DNA of 19,042 nucleotides from a virus, in UHGV virus genome UHGV-1351768. One strand, 5' to 3'. Under the pieces are notes generated by a model. It saw only the letters and a program-made list of their open reading frames with translations. It made no database searches and was not told where the DNA came from. Of this stretch, positions 2,018-19,042 are shown in pieces. A program made the translations under genes and the position numbers. The stretch's first letter is position 1. Every line of letters begins with the position of its first letter.

Positions 2018-2500
2018 TTATTTGATAAGAAGTGAAGGTTTCCCAACTTTGAGTTGAGCGCCTGGGATATTTATTCCTGCTTTTAGTTGGTGCTTGATTG
2101 CCAACTTGTCGGCTTTAATTGTCGTTTCGAACTCAACGTATTCAGGAGGAAGGGCGCTTGAGTCGATGATTTCTACAGTTTCTGACGGTTTGCGGATTGT
2201 TACCTGGTGAATACCTGCTCGAATATTTTTCTTGCCAACCATTTCAAGCGATGACGCTATATATGATTTGATGCTGTCAATCTTATTTTGAATTACTGCG
2301 GCTCGCTCATTTAGTGACTTTGCCTCTTCCTTGAGGCGCTCAGCATAACCAGATTCATTTTTGATGACGGAAAGAAGTTGCTCTATTTTATCGGTAAATT
2401 CTCCTTCCATGCCTTCTATTGTGTCAGCAATCATCTCTGGCTCTAAATCTGAATCCATCAATTTTGCGTATTCATTGGCTATTTCATACAGTTTGCTCAC
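2018..2500 (-). CDS. Siphovirus Gp157-family protein (recombination-module accessory protein), about 160 aa
   Basis: ORF 2018..2506; preferred start is GTG at 2500..2498 with SD GGAGG and 6-nt spacer. Sequence pattern LYEI..EY...EAI.GE...LKEEAK.L.ERA...IRKP.ETVEI.D...LPPEY...KLAIK..LKAG..IPGA matches my memory of the Gp157 family, which typically sits next to RecT/Sak genes. Confidence 0.6.
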   Translation of the reverse strand: MSKLYEIANEYAKLMDSDLEPEMIADTIEGMEGEFTDKIEQLLSVIKNESGYAERLKEEAKSLNERAAVIQNKIDSIKSYIASSLEMVGKKNIRAGIHQVTIRKPSETVEIIDSSALPPEYVEFETTIKADKLAIKHQLKAGINIPGAQLKVGKPSLLIK

Positions 2501-3387
2501 TGGCAACCTCCAGTTTCGCTTTGCATTCTATGTAAATGGCTTGTACGTTCTGCTGCAATTTCATTCCAGATGTCAGGCGATATGCTTCTGCAAAATATCG
2601 CTTCAAATCATCCATGTTTTCTGCCTGAGCCATTTCATCACAAAGAAGTTGTGCTTTTTCCATTATTTCCTGCTGGCGTTTCCGTTCATCTTCGCGGATA
2701 TCTTCCTCTGATTTGTGCGGCATAACTGGTTCCTGATGCATACCTTCATCTTCGTTAAGCAGGTGAATGGCATTATCCAGTCGCTGGGCTTTAGGCCAGT
2801 ATTTGCTGGCGCGTTTAACTATTGTTTTACGCGCCATCTCTTCCCAGAATGTTTTCCACGGTCCATTCTTTGCCTTGCTCGTTGCTTCCACAGCTTTAAT
2901 TTCTGCCAGACTCATTTCTTCAGTCAGGTAGTCACCATCTGCTGTTTTAACCGTGCAATAACCTCCAACAATAGAGCCTCGCTCACCAAATGCGTTGTAT
3001 TTGTGGGTTGGTGCTGAATCAAGGCCATTTGATTCATAGGTGTCGTTTGAGTACACCAGTTTGCATTGCCCCCACTTAATTGATCCTGTCGATTGTGCAA
3101 GATGAAGTAATCCCATGTAACTGATATCAAGGCACACCATGCCGTCGCGAGGAACCAGATAAGCCAGTTTGCTGGCCGGGTTTAAGGTGATGCCGATCGC
3201 CGCAACGTTGATGATAGCGTTCTGTGCGCGTGGTCGGATTTGCCAGTGCCGTTTTAGCCAGGTAATCATTTTTCTGGAAATACTGAATTGCAAACTGGCT
3301 TTCCTTAGCCCATGTCACCGTCTGTTCAGTCAATGCTCCGCAGAATAACTGCTCCTGCTGTTTAACGAATTCAACGATATTGCTCAT
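2484..3387 (-). pseudogene. recT: RecT-family single-strand annealing recombinase, interrupted by an apparent +1 frameshift (or sequencing indel) near 3225-3235
   Basis: C-terminal 247 codons in ORF 2484..3293 contain the RecT core (NGPWKTFWEEMARKTIVKRASKYWP, compare E. coli RecT NGPWVTHWEEMAKKTAIRRLFKYLP). The N-terminal 56 codons lie in a different frame (ORF 3127..3387, ATG at 3387 overlapping the upstream stop) and align with the RecT N-terminus (..KTALANPTT). The two frames can be joined by removing one base in ccgaccacgcgcacag (minus strand). Confidence 0.6.
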
Positions 3388-3695: not shown

Positions 3696-3780
3696 CTTTC
3701 TCCTGTTCTTTGTGCTGATTGAGCATTTCTTTCATCTGACGAATGAATTCTTCGTCTGACCAGTTATCTGTAAAACTCAT
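3673..3780 (-). CDS. micro-ORF, 35 aa (MSFTDNWSDEEFIRQMKEMLNQHKEQEKDDDSDSE), in the position where lambdoid phages carry kil-like small genes
   Basis: ATG at 3780..3778 overlaps the stop of the upstream 56-aa ORF (ATGA). Below the ORF-track cut-off; weak SD. Supported mainly by translational coupling. Confidence 0.25.
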   Translation of the reverse strand: MSFTDNWSDEEFIRQMKEMLNQHKEQEKDDDSDSE

Positions 3781-3947
3781 GGACGGCCTTGTTGTTTCAA
3801 AATATCCCAAAGCTTTTCGAGCAAGCTTTTCATTCTTGGTTGTTTAAAGTCTGCTCCGGTTAAAATATTTTTTCGTGAATGCTGTACCGATAAAATCGGG
3901 TTGAAAGGGCGAACCGATGCCGCCCCTGCAATAGCGAACTGTTGCAT
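3777..3947 (-). CDS. small protein, 56 aa, possibly cIII-like (FtsH inhibitor); begins MQQFAIAG and contains LWDILKQQG
   Basis: ATG at 3947..3945 with SD AAGGAG and 6-nt spacer. N-terminus and a central motif resemble lambda CIII (MQYAIAG...LIDILNQPG) as I remember it. Position in the early-left operon is appropriate. Confidence 0.4.
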   Translation of the reverse strand: MQQFAIAGAASVRPFNPILSVQHSRKNILTGADFKQPRMKSLLEKLWDILKQQGRP

Positions 3948-4022
3948 AGGATGCTCCTTCTGTTTGATTGCATAACGAAAACGCCTCGAGTGAAGCGTTA
4001 TTGGTATGCGGTAAAGCCGCGC

Positions 4023-4334: not shown

Positions 4335-4501
4335 ATATCCTCCGTCAAAAAAATTGCCCTCACACTGGAGGGCAAAGAAGATTTCCAATAATCAGAACAA
4401 GTCAGCTCCTGTTTAGTTACGAGCGACATTGCTCCGTGTATTCACTCGTTGGAATGAATACACAGTGCCGTGTTTATTCTGTTGTTATTTCCAAAGTGAA
4501 T

Positions 4502-4771
4502 TTAATCAGCAATAAAATCTTCTGGTAATTTATCAACCAGTTGATGGCTTATTATCAGCCATTTGCCATCCTTCGTTCCGTATGCGTATTTCTGGTCTTT
4601 TATCATCAGGTGTTCAGCTACTGCCTTAACTGCCTGTTCGGTGACATCTTCTTTCTTTCCTACCCACATTCCTTTTTCAGTGTTTAATGTTCCTTGAAAA
4701 ATACGACCGCTTAATGGGCTTGCGCCCATGGTTTTAATTTCATATAGCACCTTAAAAATAAAGGCCACCAT
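4502..4771 (-). CDS. hypothetical phage early protein, 89 aa
   Basis: Complete ORF; ATG at 4771..4769 overlaps the stop of the upstream IS1-interrupted gene (TGATG). Confidence 0.45.
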   Translation of the reverse strand: MVAFIFKVLYEIKTMGASPLSGRIFQGTLNTEKGMWVGKKEDVTEQAVKAVAEHLMIKDQKYAYGTKDGKWLIISHQLVDKLPEDFIAD

Positions 4772-5058
4772 CAGGCAGCCTTGTTGTAAATGTTGCAGGT
4801 ATCAAGTAAGTAATTAGATGGAGCGCCATAAATTATGAATTCATCGTTTGTCGGGTCCATCTCCATCTCTTGGCCTATTGCCATTCTTGCGTCAGTGTCG
4901 TCAGCGGCGAAGCATAAAACAGCCCACGCCCCCATTGTTTTAAAAAGAACTGCAATTGGCTGTGGTTTTACTGAATTTGCGTTAGCGCGAAAATCATAAA
5001 TCGGGTAATGCTGCCAACTTACTGATTTAGTGTATGATGGTGATTTTAAGGTGCTTGC

Positions 5059-5334
5059 GTGGCTTCCATTTCCATCAGATGTCCTTCCTGCTCCGCTACT
5101 GAAGGCGTGGTGCGTAACGGCAAAAGCACTGCCGGACATCAGCGCTATCTCTGCTCTCATTGCCGTAAAACATGGCAACTACAGTTCACTTACACCGCCT
5201 CTCAGCACGATAAGCACCAGAAAATCATTGATATGGCCATGAATGGCGTCGGATGTCGCGCCAGTGCACGCATTATGGGCGTTGGCCTCAACACGGTTTT
5301 ACGTCACTTAAAAAACTCAGGCCGCAGTCGGTAA
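5059..5334 (+). CDS. insA: IS1 InsA (transposition inhibitor / N-terminal part of the InsAB' transposase), 91 aa
   Basis: ORF-track protein [43 protein letters not shown]... matches IS1 InsA; correct size and position within the element. Confidence 0.9.
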
Positions 5335-5756
5335 CCTCGCGCATACAGCCGGGCAGTGACGTCATCGTCTGCGCGGAAATGGACGAACAGTGGGGCTACG
5401 TCGGTGCTAAATCACGTCAGCGCTGGCTGTTTTACGCGTATGACAGGATACGGAGGACAGTTGTGGCGCACGTTTTCGGTGAACGCACTCTGGCCACACT
5501 GGAGCGTCTTCTGAGCCTGCTGTCGGCCTTTGAGGTCGTGGTATGGATGACGGATGGCTGGCCGCTGTATGAATCACGCCTGAAGGGAAAGCTGCACGTT
5601 ATCAGCAAGCGTTACACTCAGCGCATTGAGCGACATAATCTGAATCTGAGACAACATCTGGCAAGGCTGGGACGGAAGTCGCTGTCGTTCTCAAAATCGG
5701 TGGAGCTGCATGACAAGGTCATCGGGCATTATCTGAACATAAAACACTATCAGTAA
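5253..5756 (+). CDS. insB: IS1 InsB reading frame, 167 aa (expressed as InsAB' by -1 frameshift at the A6C motif near 5310..5316)
   Basis: ORF-track protein ...[22 protein letters not shown]...[52 protein letters not shown]... matches IS1 InsB; slippery TTAAAAAACTC is present in the insA/insB overlap. Confidence 0.85.
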
Positions 5757-5801
5757 GTTGGAGTCATTACCATAAATCGCACTTTCATGAAATCCCATAT
5801 A

Positions 5802-6306: not shown

Positions 6307-6337
6307 GCCCTTCTTCAGGGCTTAATTTTTAAGAGCA
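6307..6337 (-). promoter_or_regulatory. nutL (boxB GCCCTGAAGAAGGGC at 6307..6321, boxA-like TGCTCTTAA at 6329..6337, read on the minus strand)
   Basis: Reverse complement reads TGCTCTTAAAAATTAAGCCCTGAAGAAGGGC, matching the lambda nutL boxA/boxB arrangement in the N leader. Confidence 0.75.
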
Positions 6338-6381
6338 TCACCTTCATGGTGGTTAGTGCGTCCTGCTGATGGCTTAAAATT

Positions 6382-6499: not shown

Positions 6500-7852
<1,353 letters not shown>

Positions 7853-12976: not shown

Positions 12977-13161
12977 ACGCCACAATTCAAACGATACCAG
13001 AGCTTCTTATCCAGACACGAGGCAATCAGACCGAAGTGGCAAGGATGCTTTCCTGCGCAAGAGGAACAGTGCTCAAGTACAACCGAGACAGCAAAGGCGA
13101 GCGTCACGTAATAGTTAACGGCGTCCTGATGGTCAAACAGGGCAAGAGGGGAAGACGATGA
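12973..13161 (+). CDS. ninH: NinH-like protein, 62 aa
   Basis: IPELLIQTRGNQTEVARMLSCARGTVLKYNRDSKGERHVIVNGVLMV parallels lambda NinH (IPDMLVEAYGNQTEVARRLKCSRGTVRKYVDDKDGKMHAIVNDVLMV). Start overlaps the rusA stop. Confidence 0.78.
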   Translation: MNATIQTIPELLIQTRGNQTEVARMLSCARGTVLKYNRDSKGERHVIVNGVLMVKQGKRGRR

Positions 13162-13780
13162 GACTCGAAAGCGTAGCTAAATTTCATTCGCCAAAAAGCC
13201 CGATGATGAGCGACTCACCACGGGCTACGGCTTCTGACTCTCTTTCCGGTACTGATGTGATGGCTGCTATGGGGATGGCGCAATCACAAGCCGGATTCGG
13301 CATGGCTGCATTCTGTGGTAAGCACGAACTCAGCCAGAACGACAAACAAAAGGCTATCAACTATCTGATGCAATTTGCACACAAGGTATCGGGGAAATAC
13401 CGTGGTGTGGCAAAGCTCGAAGGAAATACTAAGGCAAAGGTACTGCAAGTGCTCGCAACATTCGCTTATGCGGATTATTGCCGTAGTGCCGCGACGCCGG
13501 GCGCAAGATGCAGAGATTGCCACGGTACAGGCCGTGCGGTTGATATAGCAAAAACAGAGCAGTGGGGAGAGTTGTTGAGAAAGAGTGCGGAAGATGCAAA
13601 GGCGTCGGCTATTCAAGAATGCCTGCAAGCGCCGCATATCGCGCTGTAACGATGCTAATCCCAAACCTTACCCAACCCACCTGGTCACGCACTGTTAAGC
13701 CGCTGTATGACGCTCTGGTGGTGCAATGCCACAAAGAAGAGTCAATCGCAGACAACATTTTGAATGCGGTCACACGTTAG
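13158..13780 (+). pseudogene. Q: late antiterminator Q (lambda type) with a 1-bp indel in a G-run (GGGG at 13564..13567) that splits the gene into ORFs 13158..13649 and 13562..13780
   Basis: Frame 1 encodes MRLESVAKFHSPKSP...CRDCHGTGRAVDIAKTEQWG, then nonsense. Frame +1 continues VVEKECGRCKGVGYSRMPASAAYRAVTMLIPNLTQPTWSRTVKPLYDALVVQCHKEESIADNILNAVTR. Together they reconstitute a 207-aa Q with its CxxC...CxxC zinc finger; adding one G restores ...ELWGRVVEKEC. Confidence 0.75.
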
Positions 13781-13822
13781 CAGCATGATTGCCACGGATG
13801 GCAACATATTAACGGCATGATA

Positions 13823-13851
13823 TTGACTTTTTGAATAAACTTGGGTAAATT
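13823..13851 (+). promoter_or_regulatory. late promoter pR' (-35 TTGACT 13823..13828, 17-bp spacer, -10 TAAATT 13846..13851) with adjacent Q-utilisation (qut) region
   Basis: TTGACTTTTTGAATAAACTTGGGTAAATTTGACCCAAC closely matches my memory of lambda pR'. It lies directly downstream of Q. Confidence 0.75.
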
Positions 13852-13857
13852 TGACCC

Positions 13858-14050
13858 AACGATGGGTTAATTCGCTCGTTGTGGTAGTGAGATAAAAAGA
13901 GGCGGCGCTTACTACCGATTCCGCCTAGTTGGTCACTTCGACGTATCGTCTGGAACTCCAACCATCGCAGGCTGAGAGGTCTGCAAAATGCAATCCCGAA
14001 ACAGTTCGAAGGTAATAGTTAGAGCCTGCACAACGGTTTCGGGATTTTTT
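13858..14050 (+). ncRNA. 6S-type late leader transcript (pR' start to tR'), about 193 nt
   Basis: The predicted start about 7 nt after the -10 and the terminator end at 14050 give about 193 nt, consistent with the 194-nt lambda 6S RNA. Boundaries are inferred, not measured. Confidence 0.5.
13992..14050 (+). terminator. tR' Rho-independent terminator
   Basis: 11-bp stem AATCCCGAAAC (13992..14002) / GTTTCGGGATT (14036..14046) enclosing a 33-nt loop, followed by a T-run to 14050. Confidence 0.65.
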
Positions 14051-14601
14051 ATATCTGCACAACAGGTAAGAGCATTAAAGAACTGGCAAAGAGCTTAACG
14101 GTCTGCGAAAGCATTTCTTAGTGGCACAACTGGCCGGTACAACTGAGTGCTCTTTCCGGTGTGGTGAATGCGCAGGCTGATGCGCGCAGGAGAGCTTCGG
14201 AAGAACAAGGTGCCTGTATACAAGCCGGAGATCAGCGCCGGCCACCACAGCCAAATCCACCCAGAGCAAAACCGTTGTTCATCCTTACCATTCCCTCAGT
14301 ATTTTGGACTACAACCCTCAGCCCATTTTTTAAAGCGTACTTCCACCAAGAACTAGACCTAACCAACTCATTGCTGACACTCTGTGGATACGGTTGTCTA
14401 GTGCGCTTTAAAAAGAAAACCCAGCATCAATGGCTGGGCTTCGTGATATGAGCGGCATGTATTGTTGGCGCAATCCACGCCTGATTTGCTCATGAATGCG
14501 GTCACGAACAAACCCGTTACAAATCAACCGTAACCCGGATTTGTTCAAGCGACCATATCCATAATTCCTAATTTGAACAGATCCCCTTCTGGGGGTAAGA
14601 C

Positions 14602-17287: not shown

Positions 17288-17783
17288 ATGAATATGGCAG
17301 CACCAAAGGGCAACCGATTTTGGGAGGCCCGCAGTAGTCATGGGCGAAACCCTAAATTCGAATCGCCTGAGGCGCTGTGGGCTGCTTGTTGTGAATACTT
17401 CGAGTGGGCTGATGATAACCCGCTATGGGAGGGTAAGGTATTTTCATATCAGGGAGAAATAATTAAGGCTAATGTCCCTAAGATGCGAGCCATGACTATT
17501 TCAGGATTGTGTACCTTCCTTGATATCACCAGGCAAACATGGGGGAACCTTTCGGTCAATGGAAGGTTTTTCTGACGTCACATCACGAGCGGAAGACATC
17601 ATCTACGACCAGAAATTCTCTGGCGCAGCCGCTGACCTTCTCAACGCTAACATCATCGCCCGTGATTTGGGCCTCAAAGAGCAGTCGCAAGTTGAAGACG
17701 TGACACCTGATAAGGGAGATCGCGATAAGCGACGCTCTCGTATCAAGGAGCTATTCAACCGTGGAACTGGACGCGATTCTTGA
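17288..17783 (+). pseudogene. terminase small subunit with a 1-bp indel in a G5 run (17541..17545) that splits it into ORFs 17288..17575 and 17520..17783
   Basis: Frame 1: [49 protein letters not shown]...[17 protein letters not shown]. Frame 2: [45 protein letters not shown]... Removing one G gives a continuous ...[27 protein letters not shown], matching the TerS pattern (..TW....F.DVT.RAE.IIY.QKF.GAA..LLNANII.RDLGL). Confidence 0.65.
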
Positions 17784-19042
17784 TAACCTGAGCGACGAAG
17801 AGCAAATCGAATTGCTCGAGCTACTCGAAGAAGAAGAGAACTACCGAAACACACACCTGCTATATGAATTTACGCCATACAACAAACAGCGTGAGTTCAT
17901 CGACGCCGGACATGACTATCCAGAGCGATGTTTTATGGCTGGTAACCAGCTTGGTAAGTCATTTACTGGTGCTGCCGAAGTCGCGTTTCACCTTACCGGG
18001 CGTTATCCGGGAACAAAAGGATATCCGGCTGATGGTAAATATGGCGGAGAGTGGAAAGGTAAGCGTTTCTATGAGCCTGTTGTTTTCTGGATTGGCGGCG
18101 AGACAAACGAGACGGTAACCAAAACGACTCAACGCATCCTGTGCGGTCGTATCGAAGAGAATGATGAGCCTGGCTACGGTTCCATACCGAAAGAGGACAT
18201 CATTAGCTGGAAGAAGTCTCCTTTCTTTCCGAATCTTGTTGATCACCTTCTGGTTAAGCATCACACGGCTGATGGCGTTGAAGATGGCATTTCAATCTGC
18301 TACTTCAAACCATACTCGCAAGGCCGTGCTCGCTGGCAGGGTGACACAATCCACGGCGTGTGGTTTGACGAAGAGCCACCATACAGCATTTATGGCGAAG
18401 GTCTTACCCGTACCAACAAATACGGTCAATTCTCAATTCTGACGTTTACCCCGCTGATGGGGATGTCTGACGTTGTTACCAAGTTCCAGAAGAATCCCAG
18501 CAAGTCGCAGAAAGTGGTCAACATGACCATCTATGACGCTGAGCACTATACCGACGAGCAGAAAGAGCAAATCATCGCATCCTATCCAGAGCATGAGAGA
18601 GAGGCGCGTGCTCGCGGTATTCCTACGATGGGTAGTGGTCGAATCTTCCAGATACCGGAAGAGACGATTAAGTGTCAGCCGTTCGAGTGTCCTGATCACT
18701 TCTACGTAATTGGCGGGATGGATTTCGGATGGGATCACCCACAGGCGCAGGTTCAGCTTTGGTGGGATAAGGATGCAGACACAATCTACGTTTCACGCGT
18801 GTGGAAGGCGAAAGAAAAACAGCCGTTCAGGCGTGGGGAGCAGTTAAATCATGGGCGCATAAAGTGCCAACCGCATGGCCTCATGACGGAAACCAGCACG
18901 AGAAGGGCGGCGGTGAGCAGCTTAAAGGGCAGTACGCGGAAGCTGGTTTTATGATGTTGCAGGAGCATGCGACATGGCCTGATGGCGGTAATGCTGTTGA
19001 GCCTGGCATCACTGAATTGCGCGACATGATGCTTGATGGTCT
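17761..19042 (+). pseudogene. terminase large subunit (ATPase Walker A GNQLGKS), frameshifted at an A5 run (18815..18819) and continuing in the -1 frame beyond the window end
   Basis: ORF 17761..18954 (GTG start, SD AAGGAG) ends in nonsense after ...VWKAKEK. The alternative frame from about 18819 is open to 19042 and reads ...TAVQAWGAVKSWAHKVPTAWPHDGNQHEKGGGEQLKGQYAEAGFMMLQEHATWPDGGNAVEPGITELRDMMLDG. Adding one A joins the frames. The 397-aa as-read product is short for a large terminase. Confidence 0.65.

Follow-up and report, generated by a model that had tools for sequence, protein, structure and literature searches.

The window analysed here (the whole stretch of 19,042 nucleotides from the virus genome UHGV-1351768) carries a complete IS1 element inside the first gene after the antiterminator gene N, and this arrangement almost certainly results from a simple insertion of an IS1F-isoform element into a P22-like/lambdoid prophage with phage-434-type immunity and a lambda-type N. 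The element and the mechanism are already known; what is new is a previously unrecorded insertion site in a gene of the family phrog_2471. The features concerned, together with the frameshifts seen elsewhere in the window, are collected in Table 1.

Table 1. Positions in the window of the IS1 element, the gene it interrupts, the antitermination signals and the frameshifts
Feature	Position	Strand	Remarks
Complete IS1, IS1F isoform, 768 bp	5004..5771	+	insA on the + strand, antiparallel to pL transcription
Left target-site duplication copy, ATAAATCG	4996..5003		same as 5772..5779; single copy at the empty site of L001 and L002
Right target-site duplication copy, ATAAATCG	5772..5779		same 8 letters as 4996..5003
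IRL, GGTAATGCTGCCAACTTACTGAT	5004..5026	+	20/23 against the reverse complement of the right end
IRR, GGTAATGACTCCAACTTACTGAT (minus-strand letters)	5749..5771	-	identical to K-12 IS1F in the inverted repeat
insA, 91 aa, GTG start	5059..5334	+	Pfam Zn_ribbon_InsA 1.5e-19, HTH_Tnp_IS1 3.6e-23
A6C slippery motif, AAAAAAC	5310..5316	+	-1 programmed frameshift site
insAB' transposase frame, 232 aa after -1 shift at A6C	5059..5756	+	open throughout
5' remnant of the interrupted gene, codons 1-9	5772..5798	-	reads on into IS1 as a 35-aa ORF (5691..5798)
3' remnant, from codon 7, including the second duplication copy	4771..5003	-	stop at 4771..4773
Terminator-like hairpin, AAGGCUGCC-UGAU-GGUGGCCUU plus U-run, tL1-like	4751..4782	-	consensus scan; overlaps the gene's stop
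Antiterminator N, lambda-type, 110 aa	5802..6134	-	Pfam N36 2.2e-26; 98% identical to annotated N of MLI121
nutL: boxA-like TGCTCTTAA and boxB GCCCTGAAGAAGGGC	6307..6339	-	read from the sequence; boxB also in the hairpin scan
recT, +1 C	about 3229	-	non-homopolymer; overlapping frames 3127..3387 and 2484..3293
Q antiterminator (13158..13780), -1	about 13563		G4 vs G5 in MLI121
terS (17288..17783), +1	17541-17546		G/A run: GGGGGAA vs GGGGAA/GGGGGA in MLI121, LD67-1
terL (17761..19042), -1	about 18814-18819		A5 vs A6 in MLI121, LD67-1

Structure of the IS1 element and its target site

The sequence-only reading had described a complete 768-bp IS1 with insA, insB, the A6C motif and both inverted repeats, and all of its coordinates hold. 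The element starts with GGTAATGCTGCCAACTTACTGAT and ends with ATCAGTAAGTTGGAGTCATTACC, its two arms agreeing at 20 of the 23 outermost positions. The insA product consists of a zinc ribbon and an HTH domain, that is, the IS1 repressor and N-terminal part of the transposase. The insB' frame, offset by -1, stays open to position 5756, and a shift at the A6C motif, whose role in the -1 programmed frameshift of IS1 has been documented (PMC12428005), gives a conceptual InsAB' fusion of 232 aa, the same as in IS1A. This fusion covers the whole of the Pfam DDE_Tnp_IS1 profile (2.3e-74, positions 1-131 of 131), scores above the gathering cut-offs of PF03811, PF12759 and PF03400, and matches the NCBIfam equivalog NF033558 (transpos_IS1) with 243 bits against a cutoff of 100.

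Directly outside both ends lies the 8-bp direct repeat ATAAATCG, the two copies of which proved identical when the flanks were re-examined; for a fixed pair of 8-mers the chance of such agreement is 1.5e-5. The repeat seems to extend one base further on the left since C4995 is the same as the last base of the element, C5771. Target duplications of IS1 are documented in a range of 8 or 9 bp (PMC12428005, PMC12903888), and the one found here measures 8 bp, against the more usual 9 bp. The 20 bp around the target have a GC content of 30%, compared with 47% for the window and 52% for IS1.

The empty site was sought by joining the two flanks without IS1 and running the product against complete E. 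coli genomes, several prophages of which continue uninterrupted across the joined flanks. In the E. coli prophages TW14425 (L001) and GPEC874 (L002) an intact 252-nt coding sequence, annotated as hypothetical protein WP_000394305.1, directly follows N and contains a single ATAAATCG, its flanks agreeing with the window over 30 nt to the left and 14 nt to the right. When IS1 and one repeat copy are deleted from the window, an 83-codon ORF is obtained on the minus strand, with its ATG at 5798, 3 nt after the stop of N (5802), and an insertion point after codon 9. The product of this ORF is identical to WP_000394305.1 at 82 of 83 residues, the sole difference being Glu2Gly, and the substitution behind it is also the first difference in the right flank of both prophages. 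The earlier claim that removal of IS1 restores an 83-codon gene right after N is thereby confirmed. A single repeat and an intact gene in these relatives decide in favour of a simple transposition event and, together with full membership of the IS1 family, bear out the view that a real transposition rather than a rearrangement took place. Length, inverted repeats, the insA/A6C/insB' layout, transposase domains, duplication and empty site are all as in IS1-family insertions, and no evidence against the identification arose in any comparison made.

The course of events would be the usual one for this family. IS1 produces InsAB' through a -1 ribosomal frameshift at A6C that joins insA to insB'; the protein binds both inverted repeats of about 23 bp and links the element to the staggered ends of a cut, AT-rich target; and repair of the stagger will have left ATAAATCG in two copies. 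The direct consequence of the insertion is the loss of the 83-codon gene, the first after N.

Neither junction was present in complete E. coli genomes, phage records, GTDB representative genomes (queried with both junctions), IMG/VR and JGI metagenomes, and the junction-spanning ORFs of 135, 129, 122 and 35 aa had no exact-protein record. The insertion thus looks private to this genome as far as the searched collections show, and the evidence for it comes from this one sequence. That no second genome with this junction was found in these collections would also suit an assembly artefact, in which the assembler misplaced here an IS1 copy that belongs to another part of the genome, as would the multicopy nature of IS1 (E. 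coli genomes with at least one copy have it at a median of 11 places) and the signs of indel errors in the sequence. A misassembly, however, would not duplicate exactly 8 bp that are single at the empty site while leaving both ends of the element complete, and an artefact of this kind is considered extremely improbable.

Isoform and relation to other IS1 copies

Compared with IS1F of E. coli K-12 MG1655, the window copy shows 14 mismatches (98.2% identity), and compared with K-12 IS1A it shows 66 (91.4%), in both cases with no indels. The differences from IS1F spare both ends of the element, the first 155 positions and the last 65 (after IS position 703) being free of them. IS1A and IS1F themselves differ at 73 positions in our count, the same figure as given in PMC12428005. 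Among 5,426 complete E. coli genomes, the nearest copies reach 99.3% identity and carry the RefSeq name 'IS1-like element IS1F family transposase'. Judged by these comparisons, the element is an IS1F isoform. The earlier remark that it differs from the K-12 isoform therefore stands in relation to IS1A and IS1E (66 mismatches) and falls in relation to the IS1F copy that K-12 also carries (14 mismatches). Likewise, GGTAATG in place of GGTGATG is indeed present at the left end; since the first 155 positions match K-12 IS1F, however, it is the ordinary IS1F end and no peculiarity of this copy.

The K-12 MG1655 IS1F (NC_000913.3 4518472..4519239) shares with the window copy its 768 bp, its insA/A6C/insB' layout and both inverted repeats, which are identical in the two, with GGTAATG at both ends. 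It differs in having a stop at codon 163 of InsAB' and an insB annotated as a pseudogene, whereas the window frame is open for 232 aa, and in being without a flanking duplication, whereas the window copy has one. IS1A and IS1E, the 'consensus' IS1 of K-12, again agree with the window copy in length, gene layout and A6C site and in a target duplication of 8-9 bp, and are distinguished by the left end GGTGATG and by 17 amino-acid differences from the InsAB' of the window. A direct repeat was looked for around K-12 IS1A (L003 297..1064) and IS1F (L004 2473..3240) and is absent from both, which makes the intact duplication around the window copy a meaningful observation and not something to be expected automatically.

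Two changes in InsA, P50H and G51D (window 5206..5211; IS positions 204 and 207), are private to the window copy relative to other IS1F copies, and residue 34 is H, as in IS1A. In a large protein collection the exact InsA variant occurs on only one other contig (ENA ERZ27289111, L014 2946..3274), a metagenome contig that contains the first 329 nt of the element, identical at 329 of 329 positions, next to decarboxylase and amino-acid permease genes. The same IS1 sequence at an unrelated site argues that the variant is real and present at more than one place. The open frames and intact ends would suit an element capable of transposition, and we infer that this copy is still mobile and that the insertion was recent. 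It has been reported that the ends of K-12 IS1F can be mobilised if transposase is supplied (PMC12903888). As a long shot, the variant, its transposase frame open and its duplication intact, may belong to an IS1F lineage that is active today, in contrast to the defective copy of K-12.

It is well known that IS1 copies occur inside the genomes of temperate phages, as in P1, SfIV and phi458. Full-length IS1 is likewise found within the phage or prophage genomes of P1, Shigella phage SfIV, Escherichia phage phi458 and PPompW_EH2246. In SfIV it lies between Q and the lysis genes and in phi458 in the tail-fibre/invertase region, and the copies of P1 and SfIV are IS1A-like, about 91% identical to that of the window. 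None of these four has IS1 in the gene after N, unlike the window.

Prophage background and the interrupted gene

The window belongs to a P22-like/lambdoid prophage of mosaic make-up, and its best matches are E. coli MLI121 (73% of the window covered at 96.6% identity) and phage HK633 (48% at 97.7%). The repressor (6904..7533) matches the solved domain of the phage 434 repressor with 9e-38. The N allele is a common one, 710 blocks carrying an identical copy, and an N protein with an arginine-rich N-terminal motif (N36), together with a boxA/boxB between pL and N, identifies the N/nut system as lambda-type, with nutL upstream of both N and IS1. In the direction of pL transcription, N is followed by the interrupted gene, a hairpin with a U-run (4782..4761), a DUF7446 gene, a second hairpin (4375..4354), a gene of the gp17 superinfection-exclusion type, a third hairpin (3999..3980), small ORFs and the recT module.

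Several neighbouring features of the prophage may be recorded here. Between cI and N, where lambda has rexAB, lies a 103-aa gene of phrog_2651 (6503..6811, minus strand) with no Pfam or PADLOC match, and the ORF called mechanically there, 6500..6976, extends over the end of cI. A 56-aa ORF on the minus strand (3777..3947), previously labelled cIII-like, has no Pfam Lambda_CIII match despite a start, MQQFAIAG, like that of lambda CIII, and the label was dropped; an identical gene is called in L013. The cIII and kil proteins of relatives gave no tblastn match anywhere in the window. The closest relative, MLI121, has tRNA-Asn and tRNA-Thr between Q and the holin gene, and no tRNA genes were found in the corresponding interval of the window (13780..14600).

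The protein restored by removing IS1 belongs to phrog_2471 (8.6e-60, aligned over 83 of 83 positions), a family without an assigned function. Sequence searches of Pfam, NCBIfam, PADLOC and PDB for a function of the interrupted gene returned no match, and the 76-aa 3' fragment, modelled with AlphaFold from its single sequence, gave a structure of low confidence (pLDDT 57). An open reading frame of 135 codons begins inside IS1 and continues in frame into the 3' remnant; a fusion product from this frame would not be expected, the candidate starts showing no convincing ribosome-binding sequence. The insertion certainly constitutes a null allele of the 83-aa gene.

The gene is present in 403 of 5,426 complete E. 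coli genomes (about 7%) and is uninterrupted in 400 of them. An independent interruption was found in E. coli O157:H7 F1273 (NZ_CP038376.1; L020 2488..4052), where the orthologue is split by IS1203/IS629, an element of the IS3 family, and where RefSeq calls the two halves partial pseudogenes. The same small early-left gene is thus split by an IS in both cases; the F1273 insertion, unlike that of IS1 after codon 9, lies after roughly nt 150, and its prophage background differs, with Bet/Exo/Gam and annotated cIII and kil.

The hairpin that overlaps the stop of the gene was located by the consensus scan, and the 61-nt stretch that contains it (4740..4800) has a fold of -16.5 kcal/mol (z = -1.75). 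It is kept in all six relatives with the gene (L001, L002, L005, L008, L009 and L012), whatever gene follows, and the sequence beyond it differs among these six. A mosaic slot was seen at about 4337..5327 in each of the loci L006-L013, which carry the identical N allele: after the same 110-aa N, this slot is occupied by the 83-aa gene in L008, L009 and L012, by a 285-aa gene without a Pfam match in L006, L007, L010 and L011, and by a 104-aa gene in L013. A gene that varies after the same N, together with a conserved hairpin, indicates that gene and terminator behave as an exchangeable cargo module, the two appearing to travel together.

Transcription across the insertion

It had been stated that the insertion is polar within the pL operon, a description that is probably too strong. 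In its full form this explanation takes IS1 for a strong polar block, Rho-dependent termination in untranslated IS1 silencing the DUF7446 gene, gp17 and the recT module. IS1 is classically polar in both orientations, and about 947 nt separate the stop of the truncated ORF (5691) from the start of the next gene (4744), and no ORF between the two would probably be translated in the direction of pL; some 950 nt of RNA are thus probably untranslated, which would favour Rho action on unmodified polymerase. Against this, nutL (boxA/boxB) and an intact lambda-type N both lie upstream of the insertion, and N-modified transcription overrides IS-induced, Rho-dependent polarity. Moreover, the consensus scan predicts three terminator-like hairpins for the pL strand beyond IS1 (4782, 4375 and 3999) and none inside IS1 on either strand. 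Since unmodified transcripts would meet these hairpins anyway, the downstream genes need N-modified polymerase whether IS1 is there or not. Taken together, a strong polar block must be considered rather unlikely.

The expectation that follows from established knowledge of N antitermination is that, as soon as N is produced, the pL genes beyond the insertion are unlikely to suffer strong polarity, because IS1 lies downstream of nutL and the intact N gene. In the absence of N, the hairpin behind the interrupted gene would end transcription whether or not IS1 is present; with N, the nutL-modified polymerase is predicted to read through IS1, and the effect on the DUF7446 gene, the gp17-type superinfection exclusion gene and the recT module would be expected to be small. 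Adhya, Gottesman and de Crombrugghe reportedly found in 1974 that N releases IS-induced polarity in pL transcripts, and in those classical polar insertions the IS likewise lies downstream of nutL and N in the pL transcript. Their cases are said to have been IS elements inserted in gal and transcribed from a prophage next to it; unlike them, the IS1 described here sits within the phage operon itself. A strong outward or hybrid promoter created by the ends of IS1 was also considered and discarded, the promoter-like matches reaching only 9 of 12 positions and being no commoner than in shuffled sequence.

Frameshifts and the question of selection

Compared with intact annotated orthologues, four frameshifts are found in the 19 kb of the window, three of them in homopolymer runs (Table 1). 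The site in recT reads GACCACGCGCAC where E. coli MLI121, with an intact RecT of 300 aa, has GACCAGCGCAC, and residues 1-142 and 131-207 of the Q orthologue align in different frames of the window. These frameshifts reflect either a decaying prophage or indel errors of the assembly. Given possible homopolymer errors, single-base details are not fully trustworthy, including the distinction between a duplication of 8 and one of 9 bp at ACC|CAT: if the frameshifts are assembly errors, the true duplication could be the canonical 9-bp CATAAATCG, in which case the right junction (5765..5780), where two C are seen, would read ACC|CAT with three. Neither decay nor assembly error affects the identification of the insertion. 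Should the frameshifts be real, this is a defective prophage in which IS1 is just one of several lesions, and polarity becomes moot for phage production.

The further lesions in recT, Q, terS and terL, together with the independent IS1203/IS629 split of the orthologue in F1273, could also be taken to mean that the insertion was selected, either because the 83-aa gene is costly or toxic if leaky in lysogens or because the IS helps to lock the prophage in place (domestication). This explanation seems very unlikely. At most three of the 403 complete genomes with the gene are without an uninterrupted copy, the one examined being an IS insertion, and random IS hits in strains with many such elements could account for that rate. 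In addition, pL is repressed in a lysogen, so that the gene should be silent there, the other lesions may be sequencing errors, and the searches of Pfam, PHROGs, PDB, PADLOC and NCBIfam gave the gene no function on which selection could be argued. It is a long shot that the phrog_2471 gene is immediate-early cargo, cotranscribed with N and equipped with a conserved terminator of its own, and that its independent knockouts, by IS1 here and by IS1203/IS629 in F1273, go back to selection against the gene in lysogens; if that were true, the natural knockouts of the gene would provide a handle on a function in phage-host interaction.

Significance

The preferred reading, a simple IS1F-isoform insertion, describes a textbook-clean but ordinary case, and it matters little beyond annotation. 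For annotators, the ORF fragments at 4771..5003 and 5772..5798 are to be treated as one gene. The window also offers a clean example, dated by its structure, of transposition by an IS1F-type element, whose intact duplication sets it apart from K-12 IS1A and IS1F. The analysis also marks this copy of the prophage as the carrier of a null allele of a widespread and uncharacterised early gene, carried by about 7% of complete E. coli genomes.
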